Positions 1,984-22,219 of a stretch of 64,000 nucleotides of DNA are shown here, piece after piece. The DNA is from a virus (Duplodnaviria > Caudoviricetes). How positions within the stretch are numbered: position 1 is the stretch's first letter; each line of letters starts with the position of its first letter. A program made the position numbers and the translations under genes. The notes under the pieces are model-generated. The model made no database searches, was not told the origin of the DNA, and saw nothing but the letters and a program-made list of their open reading frames with translations. Where the stretch lies: IMG/VR virus record IMGVR_UViG_3300028591_000096. One strand, 5' to 3'.

Positions 1984-2490
1984 ATGAAAAGAATACATAG
2001 ACAAGATAGAATGCTTCTTGAAAGCCTTGAAGACAAATATGGTACAGATGCAATTGCTACGGCTATAATGGCTATCGCAAATAAGCAAAATAATATAGAA
2101 GAAGAAACGATTACACCACAAGAGGCTGTTCTTGATTTTATAAAATATATCGAGGGTGTAAGAATTAGATTAAGGGAACTTCATTGGGTTGCAGAAAGAA
2201 ATTCAAAGCATTTGCTAACTGATGATATTATTTCCTCTCTTGAAGAATTTGAAGATAATGTTGCTGAAGATCTGATGGGTATTTGTGGTTTTAGAATACA
2301 AGTTGGTGCTATTGTACCTACAATGACAAATCAGGTTGAACTTAGTCCTCTTCTTTGTGAACTTCATGAGGCCGTTGTTCAATTATGTGCTTGCCTTGAG
2401 AATGATAAACTTTATGGTGGTATCGTAAATGAGCTTGAGGATCTTATGCATGATATAGGAAAATGGAAATATCTTGCAACTTTTAAATAA
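1984..2490 (+). CDS. Ferritin/Dps-like four-helix protein (DUF5856-like) with N-terminal leader
   Basis: LRELHW...H...DD...EEFEDNVAE metal-ligand pattern and C-terminal KYL; preceded by late motif GATAAATA at 1948. Confidence 0.65.
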   Translation: MKRIHRQDRMLLESLEDKYGTDAIATAIMAIANKQNNIEEETITPQEAVLDFIKYIEGVRIRLRELHWVAERNSKHLLTDDIISSLEEFEDNVAEDLMGICGFRIQVGAIVPTMTNQVELSPLLCELHEAVVQLCACLENDKLYGGIVNELEDLMHDIGKWKYLATFK

Positions 2491-2512
2491 ACAATATAAT
2501 ATTTTTTATATG

Positions 2513-2541
2513 AGGATGTAACTTTTGTTACATCCTTTTTT
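2513..2541 (+). terminator. Intrinsic terminator
   Basis: AGGATGTAAC-TTTT-GTTACATCCT stem followed by a T run. Confidence 0.85.
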
Positions 2542-2575
2542 AATCGTTTTTATATTGTAGTAGTATAATATTATA
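2539..2575 (+). promoter_or_regulatory. Class II bipartite promoter TTTAAT-N18-GTATAATANTATA
   Basis: Same motif and 18-nt spacing at five intergenic sites. Confidence 0.65.
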
Positions 2576-2599
2576 AAGGAAAACTTATTTTTAATAGAT

Positions 2600-2788
2600 A
2601 TGTTTAATGATGATCAGAATGATGTTTTATACGCTGATATAGAAATTGATAGCAACGACTTCTTCGTTATCACACCAGAAGGAAATTATTTTAATTTCCC
2701 AGCAGATAAATTTAATGAAAATAGTGACGATTTTACGATAGTTGATACAAAATCACATAAACCATATACAGTAAAGTTTCACGATTAA
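2600..2788 (+). CDS. Small hypothetical protein
   Basis: 62-aa ORF between a class-II promoter and the glycosyltransferase genes. Confidence 0.6.
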   Translation: MFNDDQNDVLYADIEIDSNDFFVITPEGNYFNFPADKFNENSDDFTIVDTKSHKPYTVKFHD

Positions 2789-2803
2789 ATACATTAATAA
2801 GTA

Positions 2804-3658
2804 ATGAGTAAAATCACAAAGCTTGGATATGGAGTTATAGTATTCGATGATGTGTGTCATTTGAGAAATATGCTTACAGAGGTTCGTCCAAATTGTGACG
2901 AAATTGTAGTTTGTTTACAAAATGAATCATATTATGGAATACCTATTAACCCTAAAGTTATAGATCATGTGAAATCCCTTGTTGAAGGAAAACTTGTGGA
3001 TGATGTTATCTGGTTTAATCCAACAGATATGCATGAAGATGAAGGAAATCATTCACCAAGATTCGTAGAAACCGATAAGAGAAACTTTATCCTGGATTAT
3101 TTAGAAAAAGAGAAAGGATGTTCTCATAGTATTGTTATAGATAGTGATGAGTTTTATGATGGAGAGGATTTTGCAAGAGCTAAAGAAATTATAGACAGGA
3201 CAGACAAGATAAAGATATCTTATTGTCAGTATATTAACTATTATAGAGATTACATACATCTTATGGTTTGGCCTTTCCTGTGTTATGTGCCTTTTATAAC
3301 GGAAAGTCACTATAGGTTTAATTTTAAACATGGAAGTTTTGATAAACCATCTGATCCAACAAGAAGATACATGATAACACAACAGGGTGAATTTTACAGT
3401 ATACTTAGTTTCAGTATAGTTAAGATGCATCATTTATCTTGGATTAGACAAGATATAAGATCTAAGATTGACAACTGGTCATCAAGAAAGTATTTTGACA
3501 ATGCTGTAGGATTAAGAGACAGAATACTTGATAGATATGATAATTATCAGGAAGGACAGAATGCTGTTATTATGTTTAATACGCCGAATTATGAAGTTGT
3601 TGTAAATAAATTACCTAAACAATACATTAACCCAAAGTACAATTTAACAGAAATATAA
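2804..3658 (+). CDS. GT-A fold glycosyltransferase (GT2-like)
   Basis: N-terminal beta strand with DEIVVC, KRN, IDSDEF (DxD) and C-terminal MHHLSW motifs. Confidence 0.7.
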   Translation: MSKITKLGYGVIVFDDVCHLRNMLTEVRPNCDEIVVCLQNESYYGIPINPKVIDHVKSLVEGKLVDDVIWFNPTDMHEDEGNHSPRFVETDKRNFILDYLEKEKGCSHSIVIDSDEFYDGEDFARAKEIIDRTDKIKISYCQYINYYRDYIHLMVWPFLCYVPFITESHYRFNFKHGSFDKPSDPTRRYMITQQGEFYSILSFSIVKMHHLSWIRQDIRSKIDNWSSRKYFDNAVGLRDRILDRYDNYQEGQNAVIMFNTPNYEVVVNKLPKQYINPKYNLTEI

Positions 3659-19190: not shown

Positions 19191-19784
19191 TTAGTTATTT
19201 TTATAGCTACCAAGGTCAACCCAACGTTTTGTTTCCTCATCTCTTTGATAAATGTGAAGGTTTGATGCACATAAGTACATAACACCATCAGTTACAGTGG
19301 TATCGAACCAATCGTATTCGTGTGTTTCTGGATCTTCATCCCATACTGTAACACCAAACTCAGAAAGAACTTTACATCCATATTCTGGATTTGTAGGTCT
19401 GATCATGCAGAAATCAGCATAAAGAGGCCAAGGTTGGAATGGGTATGTTCCAAGAGAATCAATCTGATCTTTTGAGATGTTACTTATAGAATTTATCTTC
19501 TTTTCTATTTTATCAAGTATTGTACCAATATCATTGTAATTATACATTACACCATCAGATCCTTTGAATCGAAGATTCTGAGCAACGATGGTTGTTGCGT
19601 CTATATAACTAGCTTCCAATTTTGATATATTCTTTAAATGTATATCACCGTTGTCAGCAGTATAGAAACTAAAAATACAATCACATATAGTATTGAAAGC
19701 TTCATTCAGCATTCTTGGAAGATCAGCGACAAAATTCTTTATTGAGAAATTTGTGCATTTTGATCTAACTTCTGATTCTTTCAT
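19191..19784 (-). CDS. Hypothetical late protein
   Basis: 197-aa ORF directly downstream of GATAAATA at 19809-19816 (-). Confidence 0.6.
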   Translation of the reverse strand: MKESEVRSKCTNFSIKNFVADLPRMLNEAFNTICDCIFSFYTADNGDIHLKNISKLEASYIDATTIVAQNLRFKGSDGVMYNYNDIGTILDKIEKKINSISNISKDQIDSLGTYPFQPWPLYADFCMIRPTNPEYGCKVLSEFGVTVWDEDPETHEYDWFDTTVTDGVMYLCASNLHIYQRDEETKRWVDLGSYKNN

Positions 19785-19918: not shown

Positions 19919-20179
19919 AAGAGTATAGTTTATAATAACATTAATATTTATAAAAATTCATGATATGTTTTTATATAATATATAAAAATAAAAGAAACAA
20001 AACGTAATATATTATTACAAGATTTAGGTACACATAAAAACTTCTATATTAAGTCGTTGGAATATATTATGATTTAAAAATCCAATACTATATAAACTTT
20101 TTCTATATGAAACACATACAGAGTTTTCAAGACGTTTTTCGAAGACTAGTCTAATATAAAATTTTATAACAATTTTGAT

Positions 20180-20470
20180 ATGATTAATAAAAAAACACGA
20201 TCTGAAAAAAGATCCAATGACTTAGCAAGATTGAAGCGACTGCTAAAAAACGGTGTCGTTGAATTTAGCTACAAGAAAAAGGATGGAAGTGTAAGAAAAG
20301 CAAAAGGAACTCTTAAGGATGAACTCATTCCAGAAACTGATAGGGATGATGAAAGAAAGAAAAACCTAAGTAAAGAATGCTTCTATTACTTTGATTTAAA
20401 ACGAGATGATTTCCGATGTTTCCTTAGAGATAATTTTTTAGAAATCAAGGAGAAGAAAGATAGAAAATAA
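20180..20470 (+). CDS. WYL_2/DUF2693-like SH3 beta-barrel protein
   Basis: GVVEFSYKKKDGSVRKAKGTL...YYFDLKRDDFRCF matches the family signature. Confidence 0.75.
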   Translation: MINKKTRSEKRSNDLARLKRLLKNGVVEFSYKKKDGSVRKAKGTLKDELIPETDRDDERKKNLSKECFYYFDLKRDDFRCFLRDNFLEIKEKKDRK

Positions 20471-20493: not shown

Positions 20494-21456
20494 ATGGCAA
20501 AGAAAACATCAACAAAATCTACAGGTGGATCGATATTTGATATTGTGAAAAGTTTTGATGAATCGGCAGAGATTCTTGGTAAAAGTAAGACAGCAGTTAT
20601 CAGTGACTATATTGATACTGGTAGCTATATTCTTAATGCTTGCATATCTGGTTCACTTTTAAAGGGCGTTCCTGCTGGAAGATGTACTGTTTTGGCTGGA
20701 GATCCTGGAACTGGAAAAACGTTCCTCGCTATAAGTGTATGTAGAAATGCTCAAAAGAAAGGATATACACCGATATATTTGGATTCTGAATCTGCTATAG
20801 ATCTTGAATTTGTTAAACGTCTTGGATGTGATCCAGATAATTTTATCATAAAACAGGTTACAACAGTTTCAGAAGTATCGACTTTTATTGCTCGTACATG
20901 CAAATCTGTGTTAGATCTTCCAGAAAACGAAAGACCTAAACTTATTTTTGTTCTTGATTCTCTTGGAAACTTAACATCAGATAAAGAGTTAAATGATACA
21001 ATAGATGGAAATGACAAGAGAGATATGACAAGAGCACAAGCGGTAAAGGCTTTATTTAGAACTAATGCAACAGCATTAGGAAAAATACAAGCACCTTTTA
21101 TTGTAAATGCACATATTTATAAAACACAGGATCTTTTTGCAAAAACAATTGTCTCTGGTGGATGTTTGGTTCCAGAAGAAAAGATCATAACAAAAAATGG
21201 AATAAAATCTATAGAAAATATAGTTGTTGGTGATCAAGTTTTAACGGTTGATGGAACATTTAAGGATGTTGTGAAAACGTTTATTTATGAAAAACCAACA
21301 ATCAAATTTACATTCGAAGGAGGAAAAACAATAGAGTGTAGCGAAGATCATAAATTTTTGGTTGGAGAAGATCCAACAGTTGAAGAAAACTGGAAAGTAG
21401 CAAAAGATTTAAATGAAAATGATTTCGTTTATGAAATTGTTTCTGATGGTATTTAA
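20494..21456 (+). CDS. uvsX: UvsX/RecA recombinase N-terminal half (223 aa) fused to split-intein N-fragment (97 aa)
   Basis: IDTGSYILN, GDPGTGKT Walker A, LDSE, VLDSLGNL, RAQ; then ...SGG|CLVPEE (intein block A) and IECSEDHKFLV (block B). Confidence 0.9.
   Translation: MAKKTSTKSTGGSIFDIVKSFDESAEILGKSKTAVISDYIDTGSYILNACISGSLLKGVPAGRCTVLAGDPGTGKTFLAISVCRNAQKKGYTPIYLDSESAIDLEFVKRLGCDPDNFIIKQVTTVSEVSTFIARTCKSVLDLPENERPKLIFVLDSLGNLTSDKELNDTIDGNDKRDMTRAQAVKALFRTNATALGKIQAPFIVNAHIYKTQDLFAKTIVSGGCLVPEEKIITKNGIKSIENIVVGDQVLTVDGTFKDVVKTFIYEKPTIKFTFEGGKTIECSEDHKFLVGEDPTVEENWKVAKDLNENDFVYEIVSDGI
21163..21453 (+). mobile_element. Split intein N-fragment (IntN)
   Basis: Starts at Cys1 (TGT 21163); KSIENIVVGDQVLT and CSEDH motifs; acidic C-terminal tail; no endonuclease domain. 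Confidence 0.9.
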
Positions 21457-21535
21457 AAATTATTTTTACCTCCAGAATTAGTGATAGTTTTTTAAGGATA
21501 AAAAATTTTTGAAAACAGAAAAATTAATAAGATAA

Positions 21536-21661
21536 ATGAATCAATACAGAAAATTAAAAATACTACAGAAAGTAGAATCATGTTGTAGTAAAAAGGTGTG
21601 TGATTTGTGTGTTGATAAAAATCATACATATATTTCAGAAAACGGTATTATTAATCATAAT
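21536..21661 (+). mobile_element. Split intein C-fragment (IntC)
   Basis: Own ATG directly after an in-frame TAA; basic N-terminus; ends in HN followed by Ser. Confidence 0.9.
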
Positions 21662-22219
21662 TCTGGAATAAATTTTAACGCTTCAGTAACACTTCTATTA
21701 TCAACAGCAAAACTTGATGATAAGCAATCTGATAAGATAGCTGAAAATAAAGTTGGTGAATTTACGAAAACGGGTGTCGTTGTAACAGCAAAGCCAGAGA
21801 AGTCAAGATTCACAATTCCACAGAAAGTTAAATTCCAGATACCATTCTTTAAAGCACCAAATCCTTATGTTGGTCTTGAATCATATATAACTTGGGATAA
21901 TTCTGGTATAATGAGAGGAAAACTCATTACGGATAAAGAATATAATAAACTTTCTGATCTTGAAAAGAATCTTTGTTGTGAGATGAAGGATTCTGAAGGA
22001 AAACTTTGTTACGCTTATCCAAAAGAAACATCAAAGAACATTGTTGTGAAACATCTTGGTTGTGAGTTACCTGCTGTAGAATTATTCTCATCGAAAGTTC
22101 TCACCGAAGAAGTTTTAAGAAACCTGGATGAAACTATTATCAAGCCAAGTTTCGAGTTACCGTCAAATTCTGGTAATGATGACATTGAGGAACTCTTAAA
22201 TATTGATGATGGAGAATAA
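21536..22219 (+). CDS. uvsX: Split-intein C-fragment (42 aa) fused to UvsX/RecA C-terminal half (185 aa)
   Basis: KKVCDLCVDKNHTYISENGIINHN|S (blocks F/G, terminal His-Asn, Ser+1); then GINFNASVTLLL...KSRF (RecA C-terminal core). Confidence 0.9.
   Translation: MNQYRKLKILQKVESCCSKKVCDLCVDKNHTYISENGIINHNSGINFNASVTLLLSTAKLDDKQSDKIAENKVGEFTKTGVVVTAKPEKSRFTIPQKVKFQIPFFKAPNPYVGLESYITWDNSGIMRGKLITDKEYNKLSDLEKNLCCEMKDSEGKLCYAYPKETSKNIVVKHLGCELPAVELFSSKVLTEEVLRNLDETIIKPSFELPSNSGNDDIEELLNIDDGE

Follow-up and report, generated by a model that had tools for sequence, protein, structure and literature searches.

A predicted naturally split intein in the recombinase gene uvsX of a Lak-related megaphage

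The present work concerns a stretch of 64,000 nucleotides (nt), hereafter the window, from the IMG/VR virus record IMGVR_UViG_3300028591_000096 (Caudoviricetes), in which the gene of the UvsX/RecA recombinase is divided between two adjacent open reading frames (ORFs) at positions 20494 to 22219. We will argue that uvsX is in this case very probably fractured by a genuine, functional and naturally split class-1 intein, whose two halves are predicted to restore the recombinase by protein trans-splicing, and that the phage is related to the Lak megaphages. Natural alleles of the same phage population encode the predicted spliced product without any intein. The arrangement as such is already known in kind and is common in public sequence data.

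Architecture of the fractured gene

Both ORFs lie on the plus strand. The first, ORF1 (20494..21456, 320 amino acids (aa), TAA stop), joins the N-terminal extein of UvsX to the N-terminal half of the intein, IntN. The extein part (20494..21162, 223 aa) contains the Walker A motif GDPGTGKT and the Walker B motif IFVLDS and extends through loop L2 to ...IVSGG. Directly behind ...DLFAKTIVSGG stands the TGT codon of Cys1 (21163-21165), the first residue of IntN (21163..21456, 97 aa plus the TAA stop), which also carries a block B of the form S60-E-D-H63, in the context ECSEDH. ORF2 (21536..22219, 227 aa) begins with the C-terminal half, IntC (21536..21661, 42 aa), which has its own ATG, a basic N-terminus, a block F (VCDLCVDKNHTY) with Asp23 and a block G, ...NGIINHN, with His41 and Asn42. 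It continues as the UvsX C-extein (21662..22219, 185 aa plus stop), which starts with Ser as the +1 nucleophile (SGINFNAS...). The two exteins would thus add up to a spliced UvsX of 408 aa (223 + 185), and the intein to 139 residues. The empty insertion site reads ...TCTGGAGGT/TCTGGTATT..., the slash here and below marking the point of insertion, and the predicted tryptic peptide across the junction of the spliced product is TIVSGGSGINFNASVTLLLSTAK, a peptide to which intein-less alleles would also give rise. The net charges of the halves are complementary, −9 for IntN (−6 in its last 35 aa) and +3 for IntC (+5 in its first 20 aa).

Between the two ORFs, which are in different reading frames, lies an AT-rich spacer of 79 base pairs (bp; 21457..21535) that holds no ORF and has stops in all three frames. 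The frame of ORF1 meets three TAA codons there, and the frame of ORF2 upstream of its ATG meets TAA, TAG, TGA, TAG and TAA, the last of these (21533-21535) adjoining the ATG at 21536. Both start codons are preceded by A-rich leaders. No terminator was found within or near the spacer, no promoter signal above chance in or around it, and no Rfam family, group I intron or structured RNA inside it (fold z = −1.1). The homing-endonuclease gene that is a feature of the fractured genes described by Dassa et al. 2009 is absent from between the halves. Elsewhere in the 64-kilobase (kb) window we found no second uvsX, no other intein, and no homologues of the endonuclease-like ORFs that lie near uvsX in Lak-A and Lak-B.

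An earlier note on this DNA had described this layout, with a 97-aa IntN opening with Cys1 at 21163, carrying the block B motif CSEDH and ending in an acidic tail, a 79-bp gap free of a homing-endonuclease gene, a change of frame with TAA directly before the second ATG, and a 42-aa IntC with a basic N-terminus that ends in HN before Ser+1. The coordinates, the charges and a frame-wise map of stop codons bear it out. The note had further placed the insertion at the GG motif behind loop L2 of RecA, pointed to a likeness with the gp41-1 intein, and suggested a check against intein profile models, and on these points too the comparisons below agree with it.

The identity of the host gene is clear from several searches. 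ORF1 is recognised by the Pfam family RecA (PF00154) with 51.5 bits at a cut-off of 27 and by the PHROGs family of UvsX-like recombinases, phrog_97 (1.3e-47), and the C-extein matches the recombinase family phrog_18112 (6.8e-07) and, in tblastn, the C-terminal part of Lak phage UvsX. Searched against the Protein Data Bank (PDB), an intein-less allele (P0035) matches a phage UvsX (9gbg, 7e-41), T4 UvsX (3io5, 2.6e-20) and the E. coli RecA filament construct 3cmu (ca 1e-7 per domain). In the alignment to E. coli RecA, ...ivsgg/sginfnssv faces ...tttgg/nalkfyasv, which puts the insertion at the GG motif immediately after loop L2, in the ATPase core.

The intein halves were identified in the same manner. 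In a phmmer search against the PDB, IntN matches the gp41-1 split intein (6qaz) with E=3e-7, its block B motif CSEDH being aligned to CSEEH. It also matches the Pfam families Intein_splicing, Hint_2 and Hint, all under their cut-offs. IntC covers positions 127-155 of the 155 positions of Intein_splicing (E=0.015), so that the two halves, with 23.9 and 15.5 bits, each fall at the expected end of this model. A profile of IntC was built from four segments (the window, Lak-B5, and the phages SEA1 and VmeM-32, introduced below), and its significant matches in the PDB are all C-termini of inteins, aligned through the terminal His-Asn, among them the Pho RadA intein (E=0.002), a DnaB intein (0.004) and the 36-residue IntC chain of Npu DnaE (0.012). 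The class-1 catalytic set is complete, with Cys1, His63, Asp23, His41 and Asn42 of IntC, and Ser+1. Cys1 and the block B His are invariant across the aligned relatives, and the Asp, His and Asn of IntC are invariant in the alignment of the four IntC segments.

Intein-less alleles, proposed mechanism and alternatives

The protein relatives of the two ORFs are informative. ORF1 belongs to a 90% cluster of 33 members, found on dozens of contigs (Logan, ENA, JGI), and those listed are all exactly 320 aa long, save one of 319 aa and a fragment of 94 aa. In the corresponding cluster of ORF2, on the other hand, proteins of 227 aa are mixed with proteins of 407-408 aa. The 408-aa members are uninterrupted UvsX proteins that read ...AKTIVSGG/SGINFNAS..., with no gap or added residue, and they are 93% identical to the window in the N-extein (residues 1-223) and 96% in the C-extein (residues 224-408). 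The recombinase with the junction ...IVSGG-SGINFNAS... that the earlier note had assembled on paper is thus collinear with natural alleles. Lak-A1, Lak-C1 and the loci L012-L020 likewise have intein-less uvsX genes.

The mechanism that we propose is the following. ORF1 and ORF2 would probably be co-transcribed, as there is no terminator between them, and the one transcript would carry two independent translation starts, because the ORFs start at separate ATG codons and no frame runs open through the spacer. The acidic IntN and the basic IntC may then associate into the HINT fold, the complementary charge helping. An N-S acyl shift at Cys1 would be followed by attack of Ser+1 on the thioester and by cyclisation of Asn42, assisted by His41. 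An O-N shift would finally form the peptide bond, to yield the 408-aa UvsX and the released 139-residue intein. The association of the halves, the chemistry and rate of splicing, the co-transcription, and the evolutionary route discussed further down are all elements that we infer from sequence.

It is necessary to consider what weighs against a functional split intein. Splicing itself is deduced from sequence. Each half taken alone stays under the 35.8-bit cut-off of Intein_splicing, and IntC gave no significant match when searched against the PDB as a single sequence. In block B, Ser replaces the usual Thr of the TxxH motif; the aligned motif of gp41-1 is CSEEH. Selection on the intein-plus alleles was judged from protein sequences only, and a second, intact recombinase could lie elsewhere in the genome, outside the 64-kb window.

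Of the alternatives, the one that survives best is that the halves associate with poor ligation or with none, giving a non-covalent two-piece recombinase in the manner of phage Aeh1, whose NrdA is encoded by genes-in-pieces that carry no intein. Fractured genes that function without an intein do exist (cited in PMC2677866), and the Ser in block B, together with the indirect nature of the case for splicing, would fit such an enzyme. Every catalytic residue is, however, kept in the window and in its relatives, and gp41-1, the nearest homologue that has been characterised, splices actively (PMC13014065). The position of the break is also difficult to reconcile with a two-piece enzyme, since some 140 extra residues inside the ATPase core, at the GG motif next to loop L2, are unlikely to be tolerated unspliced. 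We consider this alternative quite improbable.

A second alternative is that uvsX is here a dead, fragmented gene, with recombination supplied by another phage or by a host recombinase. Close relatives do have intact 408-aa genes, and the window covers only 64 kb of the genome. Both ORFs are nevertheless intact, and the recurrence of nearly all listed cluster members at exactly 320 or 227 aa, on dozens of contigs, speaks against it. A comparison of 13 distinct cluster members shows IntN to be more conserved than the extein, with 8% against 13% variable positions and a mean pairwise identity of 98.3% against 96.5%. The codon differences between the window exteins and the intein-less DNA alleles are synonymous over non-synonymous at ca 4:1 (120 vs 27 for L012). 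No second uvsX is present within the 64 kb either. We regard a dead gene as very improbable.

The weakest alternative, to which we attach next to no probability, is that the two ORFs are an artefact of assembly or sequencing, or that they yield a single polypeptide by stop-codon recoding or by ribosomal bypass of the 79 nt. What could be said for it is that contiguous relatives exist and that the uvsX genes of Lak-A, Lak-B and Lak-C contain in-frame TAG codons (1-3 each), Lak phages reading TAG as Gln. The recurrence of the same 320-aa end in the 33-member cluster, on dozens of contigs, removes assembly error, which the earlier note had named as one finding that would overturn its reading. Read-through is ruled out by TAA codons in both relevant frames: with multiple stops in each and a difference in frame, no single stop-codon reassignment can join the ORFs. 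Ribosomal bypass or a structured spacer is rejected on the fold score given above and on the absence of a terminator, an Rfam family or a group I intron, and in each of the four split loci that were compared the first residue of IntC is Met. The window uvsX has no in-frame TAG, and reading TAG as sense would add only 132 residues over the 30 long ORFs of the window, so there is no clear sign of Lak-type TAG recoding in this part of the genome.

Relatives at the same site and possible mobility of the intein

We now return to the naturally split intein as the favoured explanation and to its distribution. The window phage is a relative of the Prevotella Lak megaphages at ca 50% protein identity; megablast of 8 kb of the window gave no nucleotide match to phages. 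The uvsX gene is uninterrupted in Lak-A1 (431 aa) and Lak-C1 (430 aa), with ...G/SGI... at the junction, and in Lak-B5 it is broken at the site of the window by the same split intein. In Lak-B5 the halves are separated by a 463-aa ORF that shares an overlap of 56 nt with the IntC gene (L001 1781-3172, minus strand, with 8 in-frame TAG codons). This ORF matches no Pfam or PHROGs family and is, judged by its position, probably a homing endonuclease. As a separate observation, made by eye alone, its C-terminus (...FEYDGGQGVFH...) resembles nucleases of the Vsr/DUF559 type.

Other ORFs flanking the Lak uvsX genes contain repeated ...KYGV... modules: L002 (Lak-A1) 249-917 and 2255-3466, L001 (Lak-B5) 3-1007, and L003 (Lak-C1) 3-809. 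Those of Lak-A1 and Lak-B5 have an additional C-terminal motif, ...DFY...IEINA.WTHG..., while in Lak-C1 the locus ends before the ORF reaches this part. These flanking ORFs may be free-standing homing endonucleases, and if so, uvsX would be a hot spot for selfish nucleases.

Contiguous versions of the intein are also available. An IntN-directed protein search returned P0007 and P0010, each of ca 540 aa, and IntN and IntC of the window, joined in silico, are collinear with the contiguous mini-inteins at the same site in P0007 (59% identity), P0010 (51%) and the Salicola phage SCTP-2 (41%). SCTP-2 is itself of some interest: its gene 204 (L006, 1886-3856), annotated as hypothetical, encodes a 656-aa UvsX that holds a pair of contiguous mini-inteins, the first within the Walker A loop (GDSG/C...SHN/SGKS) and the second at the GG/S site of the window. 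The break point is common to all four split versions compared, namely those of the window, Lak-B5, SEA1 and VmeM-32. A tree of the IntN segments does not resolve the number of splitting events; one row in it, P0013, was wrongly classed as contiguous by the length rule.

The IntC of the window is unusual in one respect. In it, residues 16-25 of IntC (21581-21610) include four Cys within ten residues (ESCCSKKVCDLC), and in IntN there are Cys1 and, beside block B, Cys59 as well. Lak-B5, SEA1, VmeM-32 and SCTP-2 have no Cys at the four IntC positions, and only the last of them is retained in P0007 and P0010. As a matter of speculation, such a Cys-rich IntC could make splicing sensitive to redox state or metals, or it could have no meaning.

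The fractured gene is not confined to metagenomic sequences, as cultured T4-like phages also have it. Salmonella phage SEA1, where the annotation runs uvsX_2, hypothetical, uvsX_1, and Vibrio phage vB_VmeM-32 have the same uvsX site and the same split as the window, and in both phages a homing-endonuclease gene separates the halves (phrog_7504, ca 1e-20). A scan of IMG/VR with an IntN profile returned 115 loci, of which 80 were kept; 69 of these are uvsX genes split at ...GG/C.... SEA1, VmeM-32, Lak-B and these roughly 69 loci share with the window the insertion site (...SGG/C...), the split point and the intein family. The identity of the intein to that of the window is 37-52% among the fractured uvsX relatives, most of which, unlike the window, hold a homing-endonuclease gene in a gap of 600-1060 bp. 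Of the 38 distinct IMG/VR loci in which both halves are present, some 31 show a gap of this size with an ORF of ca 85-300 aa, and 7 show a gap of 3-286 bp without such an ORF, as in the window. A few loci are contiguous. At one locus (L083, IMGVR_UViG_3300034063_000394) only 3 nt separate the stop of IntN from a possible start of IntC, and the IntC ORF is 59 aa long, a spacing and length that suggest translational coupling or a very recent split.

These numbers also bear on the novelty of the finding. The earlier note was right that a split intein interrupts a recombinase here. The novelty that it implied was overstated, since public data contain dozens of phage sequences with a split at the same uvsX site, and several of these sequences are likewise free of an endonuclease gene. 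We found no description of a split intein at this uvsX site in the open literature, and no mention of inteins in those papers on Lak megaphages that the search listed.

The likely evolutionary route leads from a contiguous mini-intein to one divided by a homing-endonuclease gene, as seen in Lak-B, and on to the later loss of that gene. The spacer shows a weak similarity to the ends of the Lak-B region between the halves, with z = 1.9 and 3.0 over shuffles in what is AT-rich DNA, which is too little to recognise it as a remnant of the Lak-B ORF.

Next, we consider whether the intein has moved recently. Compared with the intein-less contig L013, the window uvsX is 94-100% identical in DNA outside a divergent patch and 74-88% identical inside it. 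The patch, at ca 20778-21162 and 21662-21777 (some 500 bp), spans the insertion site. Taken together with the coexistence of intein-plus and intein-minus alleles at 93-96% extein identity, it could mean that the intein was gained recently by gene conversion. A clean co-conversion tract is nevertheless rejected: P0001 is intein-plus and yet has the intein-minus variant in part of the patch, and the intein-plus P0044 does likewise in the C-extein. The patch is better described as mosaic recombination, suggestive in that it is compatible with a recent gain and nothing beyond that. The stronger proposal, that the endonuclease-free split intein is still mobile within a single Lak-related phage population and was recently gained by gene conversion, we therefore hold to be unlikely. 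If it were so, conversion might be driven by trans-homing, with a nuclease whose gene lies elsewhere, or by ordinary recombination during co-infection, carried out by the interrupted recombinase itself.

Apart from this, the window has ca 250 bp at ca 19930-20190 without counterpart in L012 and L013, which are otherwise 80-98% identical. This is an intergenic indel, flanked by divergent genes at 19191-19784 (minus strand) and 20180-20470 (plus strand).

Comparison with known inteins and implications

The most direct precedent is the set of fractured genes described by Dassa et al. 2009, where uvsX appears only as a neighbouring gene (PMC2677866). As in the window, a phage gene of replication or recombination is broken at a conserved site, and a canonically split mini-intein is divided between the two adjacent ORFs. 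The host gene in the window is uvsX, however, and the phage is a Lak-related megaphage instead of a marine cyanophage; the intein has, moreover, coexisting intein-less alleles at 93-96% extein identity. Within that set the gp41-7 locus is exceptional in having no endonuclease gene between the split-intein halves (PMC2677866), and the window resembles it in this respect. The gene-breaking model of the same authors, in which a contiguous intein is invaded by an endonuclease gene and a split gene results (PMC2677866), is mirrored by the contiguous, endonuclease-bearing and endonuclease-free relatives described above.

The closest solved structure to IntN is gp41-1 (6qaz, 6riz), and the sizes of the fragments are broadly similar. 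The host of gp41-1 is the gp41 helicase, and the aligned stretch is clearly diverged from the window IntN. We presume that gp41-1 also combines Cys1 with Ser+1. The interface strands of gp41-1 are positive in the N-half and negative in the C-half (PMC2677866), while the window has the opposite polarity, with an acidic IntN and a basic IntC. The gp41-1 intein is also among the fastest known split inteins (PMC13014065). Because the window intein is diverged from one of the fastest split inteins and opposite to it in charge polarity, it may reasonably be considered as an orthogonal trans-splicing pair, though as one candidate among many. The earlier note had proposed a possible new orthogonal splicing tool, which overstates the novelty: VidaL, a different split intein with homologues in UvsX relatives, is already a characterised tool.

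VidaL (6vgv, 6vgw) deserves separate mention as a characterised split intein whose homologues occur in UvsX-like recombinases. In the UvsX relatives the VidaL-like intein occupies the Walker A loop, where the window uvsX has none. We take the VidaL-type inteins to be named after their UvsX hosts, a point with indirect support. The split of VidaL is atypical, with an IntN of only 16 aa (PMC13014065). Both kinds of intein may meet in one protein: residues 63-171 of P0012 match VidaL (6vgv, E=2e-13) and residues 312-386 match gp41-1 (1.9e-10). P0012 and P0016 look like the middle pieces of a UvsX in three pieces. The order in both is a long IntC of an atypical split intein (Walker A site), a middle extein and a gp41-1-like IntN (GG site). 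If this reading of their sequences is true, that recombinase would need two trans-splicing events.

The inteins of mycobacterial RecA and Pyrococcus RadA sit in RecA-family hosts as does that of the window, but they are contiguous and splice in cis. Their insertion sites are presumably different ones. RecA and RadA are, more generally, recurrent hosts of inteins (PMC4760082).

The results have consequences for how such genes are read. Gene callers label the halves as two RecA fragments or as hypothetical proteins (uvsX_1 and uvsX_2 in SEA1, 'RecA/RadA recombinase' at JGI), and once the split intein is recognised, the phage is seen to have a complete recombinase. A presence/absence polymorphism of the intein exists inside a single species-level cluster of phages. 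In the public data this one site is found in four states. It may be empty or hold a contiguous mini-intein, and where the gene is split, the halves occur both with an endonuclease gene and without it. The natural series at the uvsX site thus offers a compact test of the gene-breaking model for the evolution of split inteins.

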